From Escherichia phage vB_EcoM-UFV13, in sequence record NC_031103.1: 64,000 nt of DNA; one strand, 5' to 3'. Below the pieces are notes generated by a model. That model saw nothing but the letters and a program-made list of their open reading frames with translations, made no database searches and was not told the origin of the DNA. Position numbers and translations under genes: made by a program. Of this stretch, positions 77-61,537 are shown piece by piece (the first letter of the stretch is position 1; each line of letters opens with the position of its first letter).

Positions 77-2056
77 ATGACTTTATTATCTCCGGGCATT
101 GAGCTCAAAGAAACTACGGTTCAAAGCACCGTGGTTAATAACTCTACTGGTACAGCAGCTTTGGCCGGTAAATTCCAGTGGGGTCCTGCTTTTCAAATTA
201 AACAGGTTACAAATGAAGTAGATTTAGTTAATACTTTTGGTCAACCAACCGCTGAAACTGCTGACTATTTTATGTCTGCGATGAATTTCTTGCAGTACGG
301 AAATGACTTACGAGTAGTTCGTGCTGTTGATAGAGATACCGCTAAAAACTCATCGCCAATTGCTGGTAATATTGAATACACAATTTCTACCCCAGGTAGT
401 AACTACGCGGTTGGAGATAAAATCACGGTCAAATATGTTTCAGATGATATTGAAACTGAAGGTAAAATTACTGAAGTAGACGCAGATGGAAAAATTAAGA
501 AAATTAATATTCCTACTGCAAAAATTATCGCTAAAGCGAAAGAAGTCGGTGAATATCCAACACTAGGTTCTAACTGGACTGCGGAAATTTCTTCATCTTC
601 CTCTGGTTTAGCCGCAGTAATAACTCTTGGAAAAATTATTACTGATTCTGGTATTTTATTAGCTGAAATTGAAAATGCTGAAGCTGCTATGACAGCGGTT
701 GACTTTCAAGCAAATCTCGAAAAATACGGAATTCCAGGAGTAGTAGCTCTTTATCCAGGTGAGTTGGGCGATAAAATTGAAATTGAAATCGTATCTAAAG
801 CTGACTATGCAAAAGGAGCTTCTGCATTACTCCCAATTTATCCAGGCGGTGGTACTCGTGCATCTACTGCCAAAGCAGTGTTTGGATATGGACCGCAAAC
901 TGATTCACAGTACGCTATTATAGTTCGTCGTAATGATGCTATTGTTCAAAGCGTTGTTCTTTCAACTAAGCGTGGCGAAAAAGATATTTACGATAGTAAC
1001 ATCTATATCGATGACTTTTTCGCAAAAGGCGGCTCAGAATATATTTTTGCAACTGCACAAAACTGGCCAGAAGGCTTCTCTGGAATTTTAACTCTGTCTG
1101 GTGGATTATCATCAAATGCTGAAGTAACAGCAGGAGATTTGATGGAAGCTTGGGACTTCTTTGCTGACCGTGAATCTGTTGACGTTCAACTGTTTATTGC
1201 GGGTTCTTGTGCTGGTGAATCTTTAGAAACAGCATCTACTGTCCAAAAACATGTTGTTTCAATCGGGGATGCTCGCCAGGATTGCTTAGTATTGTGCTCA
1301 CCACCGCGCGAAACTGTAGTTGGAATTCCTGTAACTCGCGCTGTTGACAACTTAGTCAATTGGAGAACCGCAACAGGTTCATATACTGATAATAACTTTA
1401 ATATTAGTTCAACCTATGCAGCAATTGATGGTAACTACAAATATCAGTATGACAAATATAATGATGTGAATCGTTGGGTCCCATTAGCAGCTGATATTGC
1501 TGGATTGTGTGCAAGAACTGATAACGTATCTCAGACTTGGATGTCTCCAGCTGGTTATAATCGTGGCCAAATTTTGAACGTTATTAAACTGGCTATTGAA
1601 ACTCGCCAGGCTCAGCGCGACCGTTTATACCAAGAAGCTATCAACCCGGTAACTGGTACAGGTGGTGATGGTTACGTATTGTATGGTGATAAAACAGCTA
1701 CTTCTGTTCCTTCTCCGTTTGATCGTATTAACGTTCGTCGTCTGTTTAATATGTTGAAAACGAATATCGGACGTAGTTCAAAATATCGTTTGTTCGAATT
1801 AAACAATGCGTTTACTCGTTCATCATTCCGCACAGAAACTGCCCAGTACTTACAGGGAATTAAAGCTCTCGGTGGAATTTATGAATATCGTGTAGTTTGC
1901 GATACAACAAATAACACTCCGTCAGTAATTGATAGAAATGAGTTTGTTGCAACATTCTACATCCAACCGGCTAGAAGCATTAACTACATTACCTTAAACT
2001 TCGTAGCAACTGCTACTGGTGCAGACTTCGATGAGTTAACTGGTCTTGCAGGTTAA
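77..2056 (+). CDS. 18: Tail sheath protein gp18
   Basis: 659 aa, same length as T4 gp18; N-terminus MTLLSPGIELKETTVQSTVVNNSTGTAALAGKFQWGP recalled as T4 gp18; ATG start. Confidence 0.95.
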   Translation: MTLLSPGIELKETTVQSTVVNNSTGTAALAGKFQWGPAFQIKQVTNEVDLVNTFGQPTAETADYFMSAMNFLQYGNDLRVVRAVDRDTAKNSSPIAGNIEYTISTPGSNYAVGDKITVKYVSDDIETEGKITEVDADGKIKKINIPTAKIIAKAKEVGEYPTLGSNWTAEISSSSSGLAAVITLGKIITDSGILLAEIENAEAAMTAVDFQANLEKYGIPGVVALYPGELGDKIEIEIVSKADYAKGASALLPIYPGGGTRASTAKAVFGYGPQTDSQYAIIVRRNDAIVQSVVLSTKRGEKDIYDSNIYIDDFFAKGGSEYIFATAQNWPEGFSGILTLSGGLSSNAEVTAGDLMEAWDFFADRESVDVQLFIAGSCAGESLETASTVQKHVVSIGDARQDCLVLCSPPRETVVGIPVTRAVDNLVNWRTATGSYTDNNFNISSTYAAIDGNYKYQYDKYNDVNRWVPLAADIAGLCARTDNVSQTWMSPAGYNRGQILNVIKLAIETRQAQRDRLYQEAINPVTGTGGDGYVLYGDKTATSVPSPFDRINVRRLFNMLKTNIGRSSKYRLFELNNAFTRSSFRTETAQYLQGIKALGGIYEYRVVCDTTNNTPSVIDRNEFVATFYIQPARSINYITLNFVATATGADFDELTGLAG

Positions 2057-54317: not shown

Positions 54318-55433
54318 ATGGAAAAATTTATGGCAGAGTTTGGACAAGGATATGTCCAAACGCCATTTTTATCGGAAAGCAATTCAGTAAGATATAAAAT
54401 AAGCATAGCGGGTTCTTGCCAGCTTTCTACAGCAGGACCATACGTTAAATTTCAGGATAATCCTATCGGAAATCAAACATTTAGCGCAGGCCTTCATTTA
54501 AGAGTTTTTGACCCTTCCACCGGAGCATTAGTTGATAGTAAGTCATATGCTTTTTCTACTTCAAATGATACTACATCAGCTGCTTTTGTTAGTTTCATGA
54601 ATTCTTTGGCGAATAATAGACTTGTTGCTATATTAACTAACGGAAAGGTTAATTTTCCTCCTGAAGTAGTATCTTGGTTAAGAACCGCAGGAACGTCTGC
54701 TTTTCCATCTGATTCTATATTGTCAAGATTCGACGTATCATATGCTGCTTTTTATACTTCTTCTAAAAGAGCTATTGCATTAGAGCATGTTAAACTGAGT
54801 AATAGAAAAAGCACAGATGATTATCAAACTATTTTAGATGTAGTATTTGACAGTTTAGAAGATGTAGGAGCTACCGGGTTTCCAAGAAGAACGTATGAAA
54901 GCGTTGAGCAATTCATGTCAGCGGTTGGTGGAACTAATAATGAAATTGCGAGATTGCCAACTTCAGCTGCTATAAGTAAACTCTCTGATTATAATTTAAT
55001 TCCTGGTGATGTTCTTTATCTTAAAGCTCAGTTATATGCTGATGCTGATTTACTTGCGCTTGGAACTACAAATATATCTATCCGTTTTTATAATGCATCA
55101 AATGGATATATTTCTTCAACACAAGCTGAGTTCACCGGACAAGCTGGGTCTTGGGAATTAAAGGAAGACTATGTAGTTGTTCCAGAAAACGCTGTCGGAT
55201 TTACGATATATGCACAAAGAACTGCACAAGCCGGTCAAGGCGGCATGAGAAATTTAAGCTTTTCTGAAGTGTCAAGAAATGGAGGTATTTCGAAACCTGC
55301 TGAATTTGGCGTCAACGGCATTCGTGTTAATTATATCTGTGAATCTGCTTCACCTCCGGATATAATGGTACTTCCTACGCAAGCATCGTCTAAAACTGGT
55401 AAAGTGTTTGGGCAAGAATTTAGAGAAGTATAA
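54318..55433 (+). CDS. 35: Long tail fibre hinge protein gp35
   Basis: 371 aa; position. Confidence 0.9.
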   Translation: MEKFMAEFGQGYVQTPFLSESNSVRYKISIAGSCQLSTAGPYVKFQDNPIGNQTFSAGLHLRVFDPSTGALVDSKSYAFSTSNDTTSAAFVSFMNSLANNRLVAILTNGKVNFPPEVVSWLRTAGTSAFPSDSILSRFDVSYAAFYTSSKRAIALEHVKLSNRKSTDDYQTILDVVFDSLEDVGATGFPRRTYESVEQFMSAVGGTNNEIARLPTSAAISKLSDYNLIPGDVLYLKAQLYADADLLALGTTNISIRFYNASNGYISSTQAEFTGQAGSWELKEDYVVVPENAVGFTIYAQRTAQAGQGGMRNLSFSEVSRNGGISKPAEFGVNGIRVNYICESASPPDIMVLPTQASSKTGKVFGQEFREV

Positions 55434-55464: not shown

Positions 55465-55472
55465 TATAAATA
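55465..55472 (+). promoter_or_regulatory. T4-type late promoter TATAAATA for gene 36
   Basis: Exact TATAAATA 24 nt upstream of the gene 36 ATG. Confidence 0.7.
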
Positions 55473-56166: not shown

Positions 56167-59100
56167 ATGGCTACTTTAAAACAGATACAATTTAAAAGAA
56201 GCAAAACCGCAGGTGCACGTCCTGCTGCTTCAGTATTAGCCGAAGGTGAATTGGCTATAAACTTAAAAGATAGAACAATTTTTACTAAAGATGATTCGGG
56301 AAATATCATTGATCTAGGTATTGCTAAAGGCGGTCAAATTGATGGAAATGTGACTATCAATGGTCTTTTAAGATTAAATGGGGATTATACACAAACTGGT
56401 GGAATGACCGTAAATGGACCTATTGGTTCTACTGAAGGCGTATCCGCCTTAGTTTTTAGATCTATGCGAGGGTCATTTTACGCAAGAGCAACAAATGATA
56501 CTTCCAATGCCCATCTTTGGTTTGAAAATACAAATGGATCAGAGAGAGGTGTTTTATATTCAAAACCGCAGTCTGAAAATGAAGGCGTAATTACAATGCG
56601 CGTTCGTCAAGGAACCGCAGCAGGGGCTCAAAATTCAGAATTTCATTTCATTTCTACTGATGGCGGTATCTTCCAGGCACGCAAATTAACTGCTTTAACT
56701 TCTATTAGTACACCAACTATTAGTGTTAATTTAATTAATCACGATTCTAAAGCCTTTGGACAATATGATTCACAGTCATTAGTTCAGTATGTTTATCCTG
56801 GAACAGGTGAAACAAATGGCGTAAACTATCTTCGTAAAGTTCGTGCTAAATCAGGTGGTACAATTTATCATGAAATTTGTACAGCTCAGACTGGGCTGGC
56901 AGATGAAATGTCATGGTGGACTGGTAATACACCGTTATTTAAACTATACGGTATTCGTAACGACGGTAGAATGATTATCCGCAATAGCTTGGCCATTGGT
57001 ACTGTGACTGAAGGATACCCGTCAAGCGATTATGGAAATACCGGGGTAATGGGAGATAGGTATTTAGCTCTTGGCGATAATGCTTCTGGACTTAAATGGG
57101 TTCGTACTGGCGTTATTGACTTAATGGCTAACGGTATTTCTGCGGCGACTATTATTAATAATGGTATTAATAGTACTAAAAAATTGATGGTCGGTTATAG
57201 CCGCGATTCTGGTACTACATGGGATTTTCCAAATAACAACCAAGCAATGTTTACTGCGCGTACCGATATTGATGGTAATAATAACGGTGATGGGCAAACT
57301 CATATCGGTTATAACAGTAATTCTAAAATGTATCACTATTTCCGTGGTACAGGTCGTATGGCTGTTGGTATGTCCCAAGGTCTCCTTGTTGAACCAGGAA
57401 TTTTAGATATTAACACTGGTTCTAACAGAGTTGCTATTAGAGCAGATGGTACATTTGACTCAACCCAACGTATTTCTATGCGTACGGGCTTGTTTTTAAG
57501 CGGTGATGATAATACTAATGCTTTATTGTTTAAAGCGCCTTCCGGCGTAGATGGTACTAAACCCATTAGCTGGGCCGCAGGTACTCGTAACGGTCAGAAT
57601 AAAAATGACATTTCAATTAAAGTATGGGGTAATGCCTTTAACTCAGTTCCGGGTATTAGAGAAACTGTATTTGAAGTATATGATTCACAAGGTTATTATT
57701 TTTATTCACAACGCCAGCGCCCAGAAGGTTCTGAAACTGTTGGGCCTGTTGTAACTCAGTTCAGTGGTCAAGTTAATGCTAACGGCTCTATTAGCACTGC
57801 AGGAAATCTTAAAGTTGATGGTTTGAGTACTTTAAACGGTAATGTTACAATGAAGAACGGTTTGTTTGTTCAAGGTGGTTCTTCTATTACTGGACAAGTT
57901 AAAATCGGCGGAACAGCTGACGCATTAAGAATTTGGAATGCTGAATATGGTGCTATTTTCCGCCGTTCGGAAAGTAATCTTTATATTATCCCGACTCCTA
58001 AAGGTGCCGGAGAATCGGGCGGTATAAGTAATCTTAGACCATTGATAATAGAACTGAACACTGGTACAGTTAAAATGTCGCATGATGTTCATTTAGGAGA
58101 TTCTGGATCTGGTACAGGATTATTACAAGTAAGTAATAGTCTTAAAACTATTAAAATGATATGTCCAGTAACTATTAATGAACGCAATGCAGCGCTTACT
58201 TTAGATTCTCCTTCATCTTCTTCTGCTAATTATTTACAGGGTTCTAAAGCTGGAACTAGATCATGGTATGTTGGTCTTGGTGGCGCTGGAAATGATTTAT
58301 CGCTTTATAGCCAATCTTATGGACATGGTCTTGTTATAAGCGATAATTTCGTGTCAATCAGTAAACCTCTTAAAGTCGGAAATGCCCAATTAGGAACTGA
58401 CGGTAATATTACCAATGGTTCAGGAAACTTTGCCAACTTAAACACCACGTTAAATCGTAAAGTTAATTCTGGATTTATTACTTATGGAGCAACTGCTGGC
58501 TGGTATAAGTTTGCAACAGTAACAATGCCACAATCCACTTCTACGGTCTTCTTTAAAATAGCCGGTGGTTCTGGATTTAATAGCGGATTATTCACACAAT
58601 GCAATATTGCTGAAATTGTTTTACGTACTAGTAATGAAAGACCTGCTGACTTAAATGCTGTATTATATACAAGAACATCTGGACTGTATAGCGCAGCATT
58701 TAGAAATATTGCAGTTAACAATGTCTCTGGAAATACATATGACATTTATGTTTATGCCGGAACATATTGTAATCAACTAGCGTGTGAATGGTCATGTACC
58801 GAAAATGCTACTGTTAGCGTTATTGGTATTAACTCATCTACACAATCACCTGTAGATGCTCTTCCAGATACAGCAGTTAACGGTCAAGTTGCTAATGTTC
58901 TTAATAACTTGGTTGATCGTGGTAAAGCAAAACGTTATGTAGCAGAGTCGGAAATTGCTATTAATAACCAAACTGGTATTCGTATTACGAGTAATTCTGA
59001 TAGATCAGGTTCTAATTCCGTTTTATTTCGAAATGACGGTGGAAACTTCTATATTTTACTGACCGACAAAAACTCTTCGGACGGCGATAATAAAGCGACT

Positions 59101-60027
59101 GAAGGCGATTGGAATGGAAAACGACCGTTTTCCATTGATATGACTGCTGGTACTGTTCGTCTTGGCGAAAATACTTCTTTTGATAAAGATATTACTATTA
59201 ATGGAAACATTAATTCACGAGTTAAAGCTGCCGGACAATGGAGTGTTAGCTTTTCTGCTATTTCAGATGTGACTCGCGACAATTCTGCATTCTTAGCGAA
59301 TACGGGTGGCATTTCCAAGACAAGTCAAGCTTATTACCCGCTATTTTCTGGATACAGTTTTTTAACTGACGCGGGTTATCGACAATCGTTTGAATTTGGA
59401 TGGTTAGGTGTTTCTGGTACTTGGCGCCAAGGCATTATTCGCATGCGTGGTGACAACGCATCGGGGCAACAGGCTCGTTGGACTTTTGATATGGATGGAA
59501 CATTTTATGCTCCTATACTATCATGCGGATCTGCGAGAGCATTCGGTGTCAATACATCAAATGGTCTCGGTGGAAACAGTATAACATTTGGTGATAGCGA
59601 TACCGGTATTAAGCAAAATGGTGATGGATTATTAGACATATATGCGAACAACGCACAAGTATTCCGTTTCCAAAACGGCGATTTGTACTCATACAAAAAT
59701 ATAAATGCTCCAAACGTTTATATTCGTTCTGATATTCGTTTAAAATCCAACTTCAAACCTATCGAAAATGCACTTGATAAAGTTGAAAAACTTAACGGTG
59801 TCATTTACGATAAAGCTGAATACATCGGTGGAGAGGCAATTGAAACTGAAGCGGGTATTGTGGCTCAAACGTTGCAAGACGTTTTACCAGAAGCTGTCCG
59901 TGAAACAGAAGACAGTAAGGGTAATAAAATACTCACTGTTTCTTCTCAAGCCCAGATTGCTCTTCTAGTTGAAGCTGTGAAAACACTTTCTTCTCGTGTA
60001 AAAGAACTTGAATCTAAACTTATGTAA
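56167..60027 (+). CDS. 37: Long tail fibre distal subunit gp37 with C-terminal intramolecular chaperone (self-cleaving) domain; T2/T6-type
   Basis: 1286 aa (T4 gp37 is 1026 aa); N-terminus conserved with T4; C-terminal about 110 aa carries the SD-x-RLK autoproteolysis motif (RSDIRLKSN) and a coiled-coil tail. Confidence 0.9.
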   Translation: MATLKQIQFKRSKTAGARPAASVLAEGELAINLKDRTIFTKDDSGNIIDLGIAKGGQIDGNVTINGLLRLNGDYTQTGGMTVNGPIGSTEGVSALVFRSMRGSFYARATNDTSNAHLWFENTNGSERGVLYSKPQSENEGVITMRVRQGTAAGAQNSEFHFISTDGGIFQARKLTALTSISTPTISVNLINHDSKAFGQYDSQSLVQYVYPGTGETNGVNYLRKVRAKSGGTIYHEICTAQTGLADEMSWWTGNTPLFKLYGIRNDGRMIIRNSLAIGTVTEGYPSSDYGNTGVMGDRYLALGDNASGLKWVRTGVIDLMANGISAATIINNGINSTKKLMVGYSRDSGTTWDFPNNNQAMFTARTDIDGNNNGDGQTHIGYNSNSKMYHYFRGTGRMAVGMSQGLLVEPGILDINTGSNRVAIRADGTFDSTQRISMRTGLFLSGDDNTNALLFKAPSGVDGTKPISWAAGTRNGQNKNDISIKVWGNAFNSVPGIRETVFEVYDSQGYYFYSQRQRPEGSETVGPVVTQFSGQVNANGSISTAGNLKVDGLSTLNGNVTMKNGLFVQGGSSITGQVKIGGTADALRIWNAEYGAIFRRSESNLYIIPTPKGAGESGGISNLRPLIIELNTGTVKMSHDVHLGDSGSGTGLLQVSNSLKTIKMICPVTINERNAALTLDSPSSSSANYLQGSKAGTRSWYVGLGGAGNDLSLYSQSYGHGLVISDNFVSISKPLKVGNAQLGTDGNITNGSGNFANLNTTLNRKVNSGFITYGATAGWYKFATVTMPQSTSTVFFKIAGGSGFNSGLFTQCNIAEIVLRTSNERPADLNAVLYTRTSGLYSAAFRNIAVNNVSGNTYDIYVYAGTYCNQLACEWSCTENATVSVIGINSSTQSPVDALPDTAVNGQVANVLNNLVDRGKAKRYVAESEIAINNQTGIRITSNSDRSGSNSVLFRNDGGNFYILLTDKNSSDGDNKATEGDWNGKRPFSIDMTAGTVRLGENTSFDKDITINGNINSRVKAAGQWSVSFSAISDVTRDNSAFLANTGGISKTSQAYYPLFSGYSFLTDAGYRQSFEFGWLGVSGTWRQGIIRMRGDNASGQQARWTFDMDGTFYAPILSCGSARAFGVNTSNGLGGNSITFGDSDTGIKQNGDGLLDIYANNAQVFRFQNGDLYSYKNINAPNVYIRSDIRLKSNFKPIENALDKVEKLNGVIYDKAEYIGGEAIETEAGIVAQTLQDVLPEAVRETEDSKGNKILTVSSQAQIALLVEAVKTLSSRVKELESKLM

Positions 60028-60029
60028 AA

Positions 60030-60045
60030 GAGGGCTTCGGCCCTC
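60030..60045 (+). other. Stem-loop between genes 37 and 38 (GAGGGC-TTCG-GCCCTC)
   Basis: Perfect 6-bp GC stem with UUCG loop 3 nt after the gene 37 stop. Confidence 0.6.
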
Positions 60046-60057
60046 TAAGGATTTTTA

Positions 60058-60849
60058 ATGGCAATTGTAGGTGTTCCTGGCTGGATTGGCGAATCTGCCG
60101 TGAATGAAACTGGACAACGTTGGATGGATGCTGCGATGAAAGCTGTTCGTGTTTCAGTTCCCGGTTGGATGAGTTCAATGGCTGGGCAATCTAAAGAAGT
60201 ATATTATAGTGTTGGTGCTAGTAATTCTTATAATAAAGACACACTAATAAATTGGATAAAAGCTCAAGGAAGTACTCCTGTTGTTATTACTATTACAGGA
60301 AATATTGTTTCTCAATCTACTGGTGTTCCATGCTTAGATTTTCCTAGCTCATTAACTAATGCGTATGTTACCTTAAATATTAATAGCGGGGTTCATGTAT
60401 TAGGTCGGGGAGGAAATGGCGGAAGTAACTCTGCTGGTGGAGCAGGAGGAACTGCAATAAATAACGGAATTGGAACTCGTTTAAGAATAAACAATAATGG
60501 TATTATTGGTGGCGGTGGCGGTGGCGGCGCAGGTGCTAGATACAATCCTTTCCCTCAAATGGATATGAAATTTGGCGGCGGAGGAGGTCGTCCATTTGGT
60601 GCTGCCGGTGCAGCCGGTGGCGGCGCAGCGGCTGCATCTGCCGGTACAATTTCTGCTCCTGGTAAAGGCACTGTTTCTGGGGTTCACCATGGAGGAGATG
60701 GTGGAGATTTGGGAGCTGCTGGCAAATCTTCATATATTCAAGGTGGTACTGGAGGAACTGTTCACTCGGGTGGTGCTGCGGGTAAAGCTGTTACTGGTAA
60801 TGCTCCAACTTGGACTAAAGTTGGTACAATATATGGTGCAAGAGTATAA
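60058..60849 (+). CDS. 38: gp38 receptor-binding adhesin (glycine-rich-motif type, T2/T6-like)
   Basis: 263 aa (T4 gp38 chaperone is 183 aa); conserved N-terminal gp37-attachment region; C-terminal poly-Gly motifs (GGGGGGGAGA, GGGGRPFGAAGAAGGG) separated by variable segments. Confidence 0.85.
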   Translation: MAIVGVPGWIGESAVNETGQRWMDAAMKAVRVSVPGWMSSMAGQSKEVYYSVGASNSYNKDTLINWIKAQGSTPVVITITGNIVSQSTGVPCLDFPSSLTNAYVTLNINSGVHVLGRGGNGGSNSAGGAGGTAINNGIGTRLRINNNGIIGGGGGGGAGARYNPFPQMDMKFGGGGGRPFGAAGAAGGGAAAASAGTISAPGKGTVSGVHHGGDGGDLGAAGKSSYIQGGTGGTVHSGGAAGKAVTGNAPTWTKVGTIYGARV

Positions 60850-60880
60850 TTTTGAATAAATATCCTTAAAAGGAGGGTCT

Positions 60881-61537
60881 ATGGCAGCACCTAGAATATC
60901 ATTTTCGCCCTCTGATATTCTGTTGGGTGTTCTAGATCGCTTGTTCAAAGATAACGCTACCGGGAAAGTTCTTGCTTCCCGGGTAGCTGTCGTAATTCTT
61001 TTGTTTATAATGGCGATTGTTTGGTATAGGGGAGATAGTTTCTTTGAGTACTATAAGCAATCAAAGTATGAAACATACAGTGAAATTATTGAAAAGGAAA
61101 GAAATGCACGCTTTGAATCTGTCGCCCTGGAACAACTCCAGATAGTTCATATATCATCTGAGGCAGACTTTAGTGCGGTGTATTCTTTCCGCCCTAAAAA
61201 CTTAAACTATTTTGTTGATATTATAGCATATGAAGGAAAATTACCTTCAACAATAAGTGAAAAATCACTTGGAGGATATCCTGTTGATAAAACTATGGAT
61301 GAATATACAGTTCATTTAAATGGACGTCATTATTATTCCAACTCAAAATTTGCTTTTTTACCAACTAAAAAGCCTACTCCCGAAATAAACTACATGTACA
61401 GTTGTCCATATTTTAATTTGGATAATATCTATGCTGGAACGATAACCATGTACTGGTATAGAAATGATCATATAAGTAATGACCGCCTTGAATCAATATG
61501 TGCTCAGGCGGCCAGAATATTAGGAAGGGCTAAATAA
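60881..61537 (+). CDS. t: Holin T
   Basis: 218 aa as in T4 holin; single N-terminal TM (VVILLFIMAIVWY) and large periplasmic domain. Confidence 0.93.
   Translation: MAAPRISFSPSDILLGVLDRLFKDNATGKVLASRVAVVILLFIMAIVWYRGDSFFEYYKQSKYETYSEIIEKERNARFESVALEQLQIVHISSEADFSAVYSFRPKNLNYFVDIIAYEGKLPSTISEKSLGGYPVDKTMDEYTVHLNGRHYYSNSKFAFLPTKKPTPEINYMYSCPYFNLDNIYAGTITMYWYRNDHISNDRLESICAQAARILGRAK

Follow-up and report, generated by a model that had tools for sequence, protein, structure and literature searches.

Gene 38 of a T2/K3-lineage Tequatrovirus encodes a fibre-tip adhesin that most likely binds Tsx

Which outer membrane protein is recognised by the gene 38 product (gp38) of Escherichia phage vB_EcoM-UFV13, and which parts of the gene decide the choice, are the questions raised by this locus. 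The primary receptor is known to be set by gp38 (PMC3157838; exchanges of gp38 in bioRxiv 10.64898/2026.04.02.716166). In T2, K3, T6, and S16 the protein is a virion component located at the fibre tip, and adsorption requires it (PMC3157838; PMC6851490). [quoted passage not shown] 2011, PMC3157838). Here we establish which protein the gp38 encoded in the window (the whole stretch of 64,000 nucleotides analysed) is, its fold and family, the layout of its motifs, its allele class, and the mosaic nature of its cassette. We consider it highly probable that this gp38 is the adhesin of a T2/K3-lineage Tequatrovirus (UFV13 or a near-twin), that it belongs to the Bas43/RB18 class of alleles, and that it forms a polyglycine-II (PGII) sandwich fibre tip, most likely one that binds Tsx. 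The features of the locus are collected in Table 1.

The open reading frame of gene 38 starts with ATG and stops with TAA. An exact-sequence look-up matched its product at 100%, with no difference in protein, to YP_009290512.1 of vB_EcoM-UFV13 (RefSeq), which is annotated as a host-specificity tail fibre protein. Two adhesin families of Pfam were recovered above the curated cut-off of 25 bits that applies to each, GP38 (PF05268; E = 1.2e-68, 231.6 bits, residues 47-263) and Gp38_N (PF21721; E = 7.3e-18, 64.7 bits, residues 1-42), and no other Pfam family was found at E ≤ 0.01. S16 gp38 (6f45_D) was matched over residues 8-261 of the window protein with E = 1.5e-47, and PP01 gp38 (9v85) with E = 1.3e-30. 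A weak match to griffithsin (E = 0.007) was rejected as a glycine-composition artefact. The closest DNA in the phage collection searched was ∼95% identical over 24 kb (KIT06, Phaginator, Shfl2), and for gene 38 alone the best DNA identity in this collection was 97.7%. The gp38 proteins of RB18 and Shfl2 differ from that of the window at 2 residues, and the corresponding genes differ at 29 and 18 positions, respectively, nearly all of them synonymous. The window gp38 is an already catalogued protein, of known architecture and of an experimentally tested allele class. Separately, contig SRR25571499 encodes an identical gp38 protein, with 21 synonymous differences from gene 38 of the window.

Table 1. 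Features of the gene 38 locus and its surroundings, in coordinates of the window
Feature	Position	Strand	Evidence or remark
T4-type late promoter TATAAATA, 5' of gene 36	55465..55472	+	Motif; nearest of its type upstream of gene 38
Gene 37, distal half-fibre (1286 aa), bears gp38 at tip	56167..60027	+	Pfam gp37_trimer, Gp34_trimer, Peptidase_S74
gp37 intramolecular chaperone domain (aa 1188-1286)	59728..60024	+	Pfam Peptidase_S74, residues 1188-1245
Intergenic hairpin AGAGGGC-UUCG-GCCCUCU	60029-60046	+	Folding
Shine-Dalgarno AAGGA	60047-60051	+	6 nt 5' of gene 38 ATG
Gene 38, tail-fibre tip adhesin (263 aa)	60058..60849	+	ORF, Pfam, exact-sequence look-up, AF2 model
N-terminal attachment domain (aa 1-42), W9/W22/W37	60058..60183	+	Pfam Gp38_N; alignment to 6f45_D
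Central beta-helix body (aa 43-115), conserved in T2/K3 lineage	60184..60402	+	Model strands; low family entropy
GRM1, GRGGNGG (aa 116-122)	60403..60423	+	Near-invariant in 192 homologues
HVS1, SNSAGG (aa 123-128)	60424..60441	+	Variable, indel-bearing across family
Conserved AGG and beta-helix return (aa 129-150)	60442..60507	+	Semi-conserved IxNxIGxRLRIxNxGxI block; model strands 134-136, 142-146, 149-151
GRM2, GGGGGGG (aa 151-157), holds (GGTGGC)x3.3	60508..60528	+	TRF, codon comparison, zero gaps in 192 sequences
HVS2, AGARYNPFPQMDMKF (aa 158-172)	60529..60573	+	Alignment with receptor labels; model beta-hairpin, strands 160-165 and 168-173
GRM3, GGGGGRPFG (aa 173-181), includes run ggcggcggaggaggt	60574..60600	+	Zero gaps in 192 sequences
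HVS3, Ala/Gly-rich form AAGAAGGGAAAASAG... (aa 182-210)	60601..60687	+	Typical of Bas43/RB18 class, unlike T6
GRM4, HGGDGGDLGAAG (aa 211-222)	60688..60723	+	Alignment
HVS4, KSSYIQGGTGGTVHS (aa 223-237)	60724..60768	+	2 residues longer than T6 and K3 types
GRM5, GGAAGKAV (aa 238-245), and conserved C-terminal tail (aa 246-263)	60769..60846	+	Alignment, entropy profile

Several database records suggest another function. Labels such as 'distal long tail fiber assembly catalyst' and 'tail assembly protein' are attached to this gene in RB18, AV109/114/115, T6, and teqhal, as would suit an assembly chaperone of the T4 type. However, the gp38 of T4 is an unrelated protein (PMC6851490; PMC3157838), and the window gp38 matches adhesin Pfam families and adhesin crystal structures instead. 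The gp37 of the window also has an S74 intramolecular chaperone of its own, and ends in it rather than in a T4-type receptor-binding tip. Neither homology to T4 gp38 nor a gp37 with its own receptor-binding tip, the two marks of the T4 type, was found, and the probability that this gp38 is a T4-type chaperone is practically negligible. The gene order is 37-38-t, with the S74-bearing gp37 upstream and the holin gene t downstream, as in phages of the T2/T6 type. An earlier note on this DNA had described gp38 as a T2/T6-type receptor-binding adhesin with the GRM/HVS layout, and the Pfam families, the matches to 6f45_D and 9v85, and the AF2 fold bear out the description.

The AF2 model of gp38 has a pLDDT of 93.2 and a pTM of 0.87. 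Foldseek comparison of the model with the PDB gave TM values of 0.78/0.82 to 6f45_D and 0.70/0.82 to 9v85_C, and no other PDB fold was matched at E < 1. The predicted structure has three domains, namely an N-terminal helical bundle, a beta-helix, and a polyglycine-II sandwich. S16 gp38 (6F45) and the PP01 gp38 RBD (9V85) share this architecture and the PGII sandwich with the model (TM 0.70-0.82), and the three tryptophans and the long glycine helix 151-158 are conserved in the window protein. In sequence, however, S16 and PP01 gp38 are only ∼40% identical to the window protein, with HVS loops unrelated to its own, and OmpC is the receptor of both.

W9, W22, and W37 fall on the S16 tryptophans in the alignment to 6f45_D, and in the model helices 10-18, 23-29, and 38-41 come right after them. 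In S16 gp38, helices alpha1-3 each carry a tryptophan at the apex, and these three residues insert into pockets on the trimeric gp37 (PMC6851490). The final ∼140 aa of the window gp37 are 96-100% identical to T2 gp37. The SD[IVL]RxK motif occurs as SDIRLK at S1188 in the window gp37, and lies at position 1243 in T2; cleavage of gp37 at this site is predicted by analogy with the family. By the examples of S16 and T2, gp38 probably attaches to gp37 here as well: a single gp38 monomer would cap the trimeric distal half-fibre after the S74-type chaperone has been cut off at S1188, its three-helix bundle serving for attachment and its tryptophans entering three equivalent gp37 pockets. The C-terminal half would form the PGII 'sandwich', with the invariant glycine runs as structural strands and the HVSs as distal loops contacting the receptor.

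The GRM/HVS layout was traced with an entropy and gap profile of 192 homologues and a block-wise alignment to 19 reference adhesins. GRM1, GRM2, GRM3, and residues 238-245 of GRM5 are invariant or nearly so among the 192 members, GRM4 is partially conserved with invariant glycines, and the blocks corresponding to the four HVSs are variable. The alternation at the coordinates of Table 1 is far beyond chance. Per-position entropy over the 192 distinct members also agrees with the description given in the earlier note, in which a conserved N-terminal part is followed by alternating polyglycine and variable segments, the N-terminal half being comparatively conserved. GRM2 aligns with the long PGII helix 3 of S16 gp38 (151-GGGGGGGG-158), described in PMC6851490, and GRM3 is kept in 20 of 20 reference sequences, with a single F-to-L change, in S16. 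The share of glycine is 34% in residues 116-263 versus 9.6% in residues 1-115, and together glycine and alanine account for 49% of the C-terminal domain. This composition results in a higher local G+C content (0.56-0.58) than in the flanking genes (∼0.27-0.44).

At the DNA level, the runs pointed out previously are present, ggtggcggtggcggtggcggcgcaggt at 60508-60534 and ggcggcggaggaggt at 60574-60588, and Tandem Repeats Finder reported a perfect (GGTGGC)x3.3 array at 60508-60527. This array and the short 9- and 12-nt repeats close to it could be seen as a slippage-prone, contingency-like tract that makes length variants of the adhesin, since in-frame slippage by +/-6 nt is mechanistically possible. 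Family comparison speaks against the suggestion. Residues 151-157 and 173-181 are gap-free in 192 distinct homologues, with 0 indels in the glycine runs, and all indels are found in HVS1-4. The hexamer repeat is unconserved even among 98-99% identical proteins: its intact form is common to RB18 only, while Shfl2, Bas43, AV114, and Delraymugoa interrupt it synonymously and keep the 7 glycines. Moreover, the glycine runs are PGII strands in a saturated hydrogen-bond lattice (PMC6851490), and T6 with GRM2, GRM3, or GRM4 deleted was never viable (PMC3157838). GGC is enriched in the glycine runs (6/12 codons versus 7/49 elsewhere, Fisher p = 0.014), and the alternation of GGT and GGC avoids long G homopolymers, the opposite of a design for slippage. 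The proneness to slippage asserted in the earlier note was not upheld, and a contingency-like role is highly improbable. The GGT/GGC repeats arise as a side effect of spelling polyglycine with the two preferred, non-homopolymeric glycine codons.

The same runs had been called prone to recombination. Exchange is indeed supported at this locus, but it involves the whole GRM1-GRM5 cassette and not the shuffling of individual HVSs, in agreement with Trojet et al. 2011 (PMC3157838). Breakpoints sit just outside GRM1 and GRM5. Residues 43-115 are 94-98% identical to K3 and JK38, despite differing C-terminal domains, and identity to JK38 is back to 97% from ∼aa 241, marking a recombination junction. 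In 30-nt bins, identity to T2 DNA is 90-100% between the 3' end of gp37 and aa ∼40 of gp38, and again in gene t. T2 (FadL/OmpF) and K3 (OmpA) have the same attachment module as the window, but different receptors; in T2 gp38 the specificity domain is 47% and the HVSs 13% identical to those of the window. Delraymugoa has an N-terminal domain of the Krischvirus type, 80% identical to that of the window, and its gene is located elsewhere in the genome. The specificity cassette has moved between Tequatrovirus, Mosigvirus, and Krischvirus, and the locus is a clear case of an adhesin cassette exchanged among three Straboviridae genera. Delraymugoa and kaaroe have the same gp38.

No published receptor for UFV13, RB18, or Shfl2 was found in a literature search; the UFV13 papers make no mention of gp38 or of a receptor, and neither Trojet et al. 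nor the 2026 preprint (bioRxiv 10.64898/2026.04.02.716166) includes RB18. Receptors have been reported for close relatives. The C-terminal domain of the window gp38 is 96-97% identical to those of Bas43, AV114, and Delraymugoa, and Bas43, AV114/AV115, KIT06, and Delraymugoa have its length, its GRM/HVS layout, its Ala/Gly-rich HVS3, and its long HVS4. All four HVSs of RB18 and Shfl2 are identical (100%) to those of the window, and HVS identity is 98.5% for Delraymugoa, 96.9% for AV114, and 95.4% for Bas43; KIT06 gp38 has 10 aa differences, 3 of them within HVSs. The receptor of Bas43 (TadeuszReichstein) is Tsx (BASEL supplementary table; RB-TnSeq), as is that of Delraymugoa (CPL00151), AV114 and AV115 need Tsx (deletion mutants of ECOR4), and KIT06 does not infect the Keio tsx deletion strain, with a weak dependence on BtuB too. 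The earlier note had held that the outer membrane protein could not be inferred, a position superseded by these five phages, all of which carry near-identical alleles and need Tsx. Judged by sequence, the HVS set of the window gp38 matches that of tested Tsx-dependent phages, and we infer Tsx binding from these near-identical alleles.

Alignment with receptor labels gave a further marker. The HVS2 motif Y/W-x-P-F-x-Q-M is found in 9/9 Tsx binders and in 0/9 binders of OmpA, OmpC, OmpF, or FadL, and the window HVS2 carries its Y-x-P-F-x-Q-M form as YNPFPQM. T6, the classical Tsx binder, and JK38/CM8 share the fold family, the receptor, and this motif with the window allele. However, their HVS identity to it is just 42-48%, their HVS3 and HVS4 are unrelated to it in sequence, and the N-terminal domain of T6 is just 47% identical. 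The T6 type and the window type are separate Tsx subtypes, as already noted (bioRxiv 10.64898/2026.04.02.716166), and represent two solutions to Tsx binding. Within the allele class of the window, dN/dS in HVS2-4 is 0-0.17, which fits a receptor-locked interface; the window and RB18 differ in these segments by 14 synonymous and 0 non-synonymous changes.

Binding to OmpA, as by K3, has some sequence similarity in its favour. Over the first 114 residues, identity is 94% to K3 gp38 (P07876) and 95% to Bas45 gp38, both of OmpA binders, GenBank notes on the nearly identical gp38 of RB18 and Shfl2 read 'similar to K3', and in some cases only few changes lie between a Tsx and an OmpA specificity (Trojet et al., PMC3157838). 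The similarity to K3 is confined to the N-terminal half, though, and identity to K3 and Bas45 falls to just 64% in the C-terminal domain and 35% in the HVSs. The five-residue Y-x-P-F-x stretch of HVS2 is absent from K3, Bas45, and RB49, and HVS3 has a 4-residue insertion in these phages. Alleles of the K3/Ox2 type have a short HVS2 (GGGNRGKLIF) and an HVS3 with the insertion GEGSLSA; the window gp38 has a long HVS2 and no insertion in HVS3. Since 5/5 tested phages with a window-type allele depend on Tsx and not on OmpA, an OmpA-binding adhesin is very unlikely. For this allele of the Bas43/RB18 class, the most probable primary receptor is the nucleoside channel Tsx, bound reversibly at its extracellular loops, and the short tail fibres would then engage the LPS core. 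Secondary contributions are possible, given the weak BtuB dependence of KIT06. The LPS-core secondary receptor of these phages is determined by the short tail fibre gp12 (bioRxiv 10.64898/2026.04.02.716166), and defence systems also restrict host range; gp38 sets the primary receptor, but to call it the host-range determinant, as was done initially, is an overstatement.

Few residues distinguish the window gp38 from tested relatives. N163, K171, H211, D214, and Q228 are mostly H, I, Y, N, and K/Q, respectively, in relatives tested for Tsx. Among the differences in the receptor-binding domain (aa 116-245), H211 alone is without a counterpart in any tested Tsx-dependent phage: N163, K171, and D214 are all found in Tsx-dependent Delraymugoa, and Q228 in AV114. 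It could be argued that Tsx is bound, but that the combination H211/N163/K171/D214 alters or widens specificity, e.g. towards variant Tsx loops in Shigella or in other lineages of E. coli, or a second outer membrane protein. Position 211 is Y in all tested relatives, the HH-GG-D form occurs in just 2/16 distinct window-type sequences, and Shigella flexneri was the isolation host of Shfl2, which has the same HVSs; the weak BtuB dependence of KIT06 points the same way. A single HVS substitution may also retarget gp38, as Q206L does from OmpF to OmpW in RB51/RB68 (bioRxiv 10.64898/2026.04.02.716166), and in PST three residues widen the specificity of a T6-type gp38 (Trojet et al., PMC3157838). 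Against this stand the Tsx dependence of Delraymugoa and AV114, which carry the other substitutions, the conservative nature of the H-to-Y difference and its place at the border of HVS3 and GRM4, and the strong purifying selection across the class, which argues for a single shared target. Altered or widened specificity is unlikely on this evidence. For the H211 sub-variant in particular, which UFV13 shares only with RB18 and Shfl2, a shift or widening, for instance to certain alleles of the Tsx loops in Shigella or in E. coli from mastitis, or to a second outer membrane protein, is rather improbable. If true, H211 would be a natural one-residue specificity switch, like Q206L of RB68.

The architecture of gp38 has been described since 1987-2011, a solved structure of the fold dates from 2018, and phenotypes are on record for near-identical alleles, leaving little novelty in the protein as such. 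The practical value lies in a confident, testable assignment of Tsx to UFV13, which has been put forward as a phage for the control of mastitis and biofilms. Viable tsx deletion mutants in the cited receptor screens indicate that Tsx is non-essential; resistance through loss of tsx is therefore to be expected, and partners in a phage cocktail should use other receptors.

With regard to expression, genes 36, 37, and 38 are probably transcribed together, late in infection. Among relatives in Tequatrovirus and Mosigvirus, conservation of the segment that holds the intergenic hairpin and the Shine-Dalgarno sequence (60029..60051) is 97-100%. The hairpin was considered as a candidate structured RNA and rejected: its folding energy has a z-score of just -1.4, and it fits a simple terminator-like pattern.

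The useful additions of this analysis are a confident prediction that UFV13 binds Tsx, the rejection of the slippage idea for the glycine codons of gene 38, and a map of cassette exchange. Identification of the 263-aa protein as gp38, proposed in an earlier note, is correct but routine; the protein itself, the family and fold to which it belongs, and the receptor used by its allele class had all been known before. The open reading frame and its Pfam matches (GP38 adhesin, residues 47-263, 231.6 bits; Gp38_N, residues 1-42, 64.7 bits) confirm it. Pfam identifies the protein encoded upstream as gp37, from matches to gp37_trimer, Gp34_trimer and, at the C-terminus (1188-1245), Peptidase_S74 ('chaperone of endosialidase'). 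The window is from a Tequatrovirus, and its closest phage-collection records over 24 kb are KIT06, Phaginator, Shfl2 and Bas43 (~94-96% identical). An exact-sequence look-up returned a 100% match to vB_EcoM-UFV13 gp38 (ANA50278.1/YP_009290512.1), the latter labelled 'tail fiber protein; host specificity' in RefSeq, and run SRR25571499 contains a contig whose gene 38 differs from the window's by 21 synonymous substitutions, which leave the protein unchanged. The accessible UFV13 literature neither mentions gp38 nor identifies a receptor.

In GenBank, adhesin-type gp38 genes often carry the label 'distal long tail fiber assembly catalyst' or 'tail assembly protein' (RB18, T6, AV109/114/115, teqhal), which wrongly gives them the function of T4 gp38, and T2 record MH751506 labels gene 38 'hypothetical protein'. 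One homologue (P0071), labelled 'receptor-recognizing protein [Bacillus cereus]', lies on a 171.5-kb contig and is most likely T-even phage contamination of the assembly; likewise, many 'Escherichia coli' or 'Shigella' gp38 entries on ~165-170-kb contigs are likely whole phage genomes inside bacterial assemblies. ORFs of 50-95 aa in other frames overlap the C-terminal half of gene 38 (60393-60859, both strands) and look like read-through of stop-poor, G+C-rich sequence, such as a reverse-strand poly-Pro stretch.

Features in and around gene 38
Feature	Nucleotides	Residues	Strand	Remarks
Gene 38 ORF	60058-60849	263 codons	+	ATG start, TAA stop
Gene 37 ORF	56167-60027	1286 aa		upstream of gene 38
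Holin T ORF	60881-61537	218 aa		downstream of gene 38; Pfam
gp37 S74 intramolecular chaperone domain	59728-60024	1188-1286		SDIRLK autocleavage-type motif at S1188
T4-type late-promoter motif TATAAATA	55465-55472			24 nt upstream of gene 36 start (55496)
Hairpin AGAGGGC-UUCG-GCCCUCU	60029-60051 (including Shine-Dalgarno AAGGA)			30-nt gap between genes 37 and 38; 7 bp, G+C-rich, UUCG tetraloop
GRM1, GRGGNGG		116-122		invariant or near-invariant, 192 homologues
HVS1		123-128		high entropy, 192 homologues
GRM2		151-157		invariant or near-invariant, 192 homologues
HVS2		158-172		high entropy, 192 homologues
GRM3, GGGGGRPFG		173-181		invariant or near-invariant, 192 homologues
HVS3		182-210		high entropy, 192 homologues
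GRM4		211-222		partly conserved, 192 homologues
HVS4		223-237		high entropy, 192 homologues
GRM5		238-245		invariant or near-invariant, 192 homologues
Overlapping ORF	60572-60859	95 aa	+	
Overlapping ORF	60481-60690	69 aa	-	

Searches of PDB sequences with phmmer matched the gp38 of Salmonella phage S16 (6f45_D; E = 1.5e-47, residues 8-261) and the receptor-binding domain of PP01 gp38 (9v85; E = 1.3e-30). An AlphaFold2 model built from an 87-sequence alignment (mean pLDDT 93.2, pTM 0.87) was matched by Foldseek to the same S16 and PP01 entries (TM 0.78/0.82 and 0.70/0.82), with no other PDB match below E = 1. Its N-terminus forms three short helices (10-18, 23-29, 38-41), each preceded by a tryptophan (W9, W22, W37) that aligns to one of the S16 tryptophans; the S16 residues fit into three equivalent pockets on the gp37 trimer (PMC6851490). 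Glycine accounts for 34% of residues 116-263 vs 9.6% of residues 1-115, and local G+C reaches 0.56-0.58 in the glycine-rich part of the gene. In an alignment of 192 distinct full-length homologues, glycine-rich motifs (GRMs) and hypervariable segments (HVSs) follow the scheme of Trojet et al. 2011 (PMC3157838), the C-terminal tail is also invariant or near-invariant, and 151-GGGGGGG-157 aligns with polyglycine-II (PGII) helix 3 of S16 (PMC6851490). Model confidence drops slightly in the HVS blocks. The claimed C-terminal architecture is thus borne out by both composition and alignment.

The earlier note considered the receptor beyond inference from sequence alone, but an inference is possible because this allele class has been phenotyped repeatedly as Tsx-dependent. 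The gp38 proteins of RB18 and Shfl2 are 99.2% identical to that of the window (100% in the HVSs), followed by Bas43 (TadeuszReichstein; 97.7%, HVSs 95.4%), AV114 and AV115 (97.0%; HVSs 96.9% for AV114), KIT06 (96.2%) and Delraymugoa, whose gp38 is the same as kaaroe's (90.6%, HVSs 98.5%). Bas43 was assigned to Tsx in the BASEL supplementary table and again by RB-TnSeq, AV114 and AV115 were 'shown to recognize Tsx' with ECOR4 deletion mutants, Delraymugoa (CPL00151) is assigned to Tsx/Kdo, and KIT06 does not infect the Keio tsx deletion strain and shows weak BtuB dependence too. Residues N163, K171 and D214 of the window recur in Delraymugoa and Q228 in AV114; within the receptor-binding domain (aa 116-245), the one residue without a counterpart in any tested phage is H211, at the HVS3/GRM4 border, where all of them have Y. 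From these near-identical, phenotyped alleles, UFV13 gp38 is very probably a Tsx binder. The residual doubt comes from the weak BtuB dependence of KIT06 and from documented retargeting by single substitutions: Q206L alone moves a gp38 from OmpF to OmpW (bioRxiv 10.64898/2026.04.02.716166), and three residues retarget PST gp38 (Trojet et al. 2011, PMC3157838).

The OmpA binders K3 (P07876) and Bas45 are 94-95% identical to the window over the N-terminal 114 residues, but identity falls to only 64% over the C-terminal domain and to 35% within the HVSs, which explains the misleading 'similar to K3' remarks in the RB18 and Shfl2 entries. T6, JK38, CM8, GoldenSnicker and JK32 have in common with the window only the HVS2 motif Y/W-x-P-F-x-Q-M, which occurs in 9/9 Tsx binders compared, in 0/9 binders of OmpA, OmpC, OmpF or FadL, and in 44 of the 192 family members. 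HVS3 and HVS4 of T6, the classical Tsx binder, are unrelated to those of the window class, which is a second Tsx-binding solution; this type has already been set apart as a subtype (bioRxiv 10.64898/2026.04.02.716166). HVS2-4 differ from RB18 by 14 synonymous and 0 non-synonymous changes, and dN/dS is 0.09-0.17 against Bas43, AV114 and KIT06. By these comparisons the HVSs are hypervariable only between receptor classes, with strong purifying selection inside the allele class. A Tsx-specific gp38 explains neither of two reported effects of UFV13, the reduction of Trueperella pyogenes biofilm and adsorption to the sulfate reducer Oceanidesulfovibrio marinus, which the papers credit to virion-associated hydrolases (PMC11425119, PMC5146434).

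The GGT/GGC runs described previously are present at 60508-60534 and 60574-60588, and Tandem Repeats Finder detects a perfect (GGTGGC)x3.3 array at 60508-60527. Their supposed proneness to slippage is not supported. Across the 192 distinct sequences, residues 151-157 and 173-181 are free of gaps and all indels fall in HVS1-4, and the perfect hexamer repeat is common to the window and RB18 only; Shfl2, Bas43, AV114 and Delraymugoa keep the seven glycines with synonymously scrambled codons. The most fitting reading of the repeat is a side effect of coding for poly-Gly. These runs form PGII strands in a saturated hydrogen-bond lattice (PMC6851490), and deletion of GRM2, GRM3 or GRM4 in T6 gave 0 viable phages among 220 recombinants (PMC3157838). 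Run codons are mostly GGT and GGC, a usage that avoids long G homopolymers; GGC makes up 6/12 run codons vs 7/49 elsewhere in gene 38 (Fisher p = 0.014). In all 15 phages compared (window 60508-60588, related loci L001-L014), poly-Gly is encoded mainly by GGT/GGC, while GGA is less frequent and GGG almost missing; counted across all of gene 38, GGA ranks second among the glycine codons. The choice may serve to avoid homopolymers of G/A, or may stem from a constraint on the translation of poly-Gly.

The suggestion that the gene is prone to recombination stands for whole modules. In sliding 30-nt DNA identity to the window, T2 scores 97-100% over the 3' end of gene 37 and 90-100% up to gp38 aa ~40, then 27-73% until the last gene 38 codons, and 97-100% again in gene t. 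Delraymugoa, a Krischvirus, in which gene 38 sits at a different genomic position, scores 93-100% in most bins (83-100% overall) from aa ~111 to ~250, a span that takes in GRM1 to GRM5 with a few residues on either side. AV114, a Mosigvirus, scores 87-100% across the 3' end of gene 37 and the greater part of gene 38, and 60-80% in gene t, while JK38 has junctions at aa ~100-120, ~140 and ~240. Attachment and specificity modules are thus exchanged independently of each other, the junctions lying within or next to conserved motifs, the modular pattern described by Tetart et al. and Trojet et al. (PMC3157838). Shuffling of single HVSs was not seen in the 30-nt comparison, which matches Trojet's 14 chimeras.

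The following scheme draws mostly on knowledge of the family. Genes 36-37-38 would be transcribed late, and gp37 would trimerise with the help of its S74 domain, which would then be removed at SDIRLK. One gp38 monomer would dock on the new gp37 tip through W9, W22 and W37, its distal HVS loops would bind Tsx, and contact of the short tail fibres with the LPS core would follow; in the relatives Bas43 and Delraymugoa this step uses Kdo. gp38 is therefore the determinant of the primary receptor, but not the sole host-range determinant.

The motif ahead of gene 36 is the nearest late-promoter motif upstream of gene 38, with none between the two genes; the window holds 19 such motifs vs 8.4 expected, consistent with a late-gene region. 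The hairpin between genes 37 and 38 abuts the Shine-Dalgarno sequence, is 97-100% conserved in Tequatrovirus and Mosigvirus relatives, and fits a simple terminator pattern with a folding z-score of only -1.4; it might stabilise the transcript or couple translation. SDIRLK and the last ~140 residues of gp37 match T2 (96-100% identity over these residues) and most of the shaft is only 15-70% identical, which makes gp37 itself a strong mosaic. The hinge protein gp35 (54318-55433) matches Pfam ILEI (interleukin-like EMT inducer; E = 2e-8, residues 58-127) above the family cut-off, a surprising domain to be assigned to a phage fibre connector.

A cassette of a gp37-like fibre with S74 chaperone domain and a gp38-type adhesin also occurs outside Straboviridae (L017:4311-8843, L018:1-4245, L019:5188-8786). 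One setting is a cluster of 40 members, mostly ~106-112 kb, including E. coli/Shigella assembly contigs of 107.8 and 68.8 kb, in which the cassette adjoins a GpJ-like tail tip, ParA, DnaB and a TacA antitoxin; from this gene content the contigs look like a phage-plasmid, and their gp38 is 69% identical to that of the window. In the other, the cassette belongs to a prophage on a 1.1-Mb contig of Enterobacter hormaechei, and its gp38 is 54% identical.
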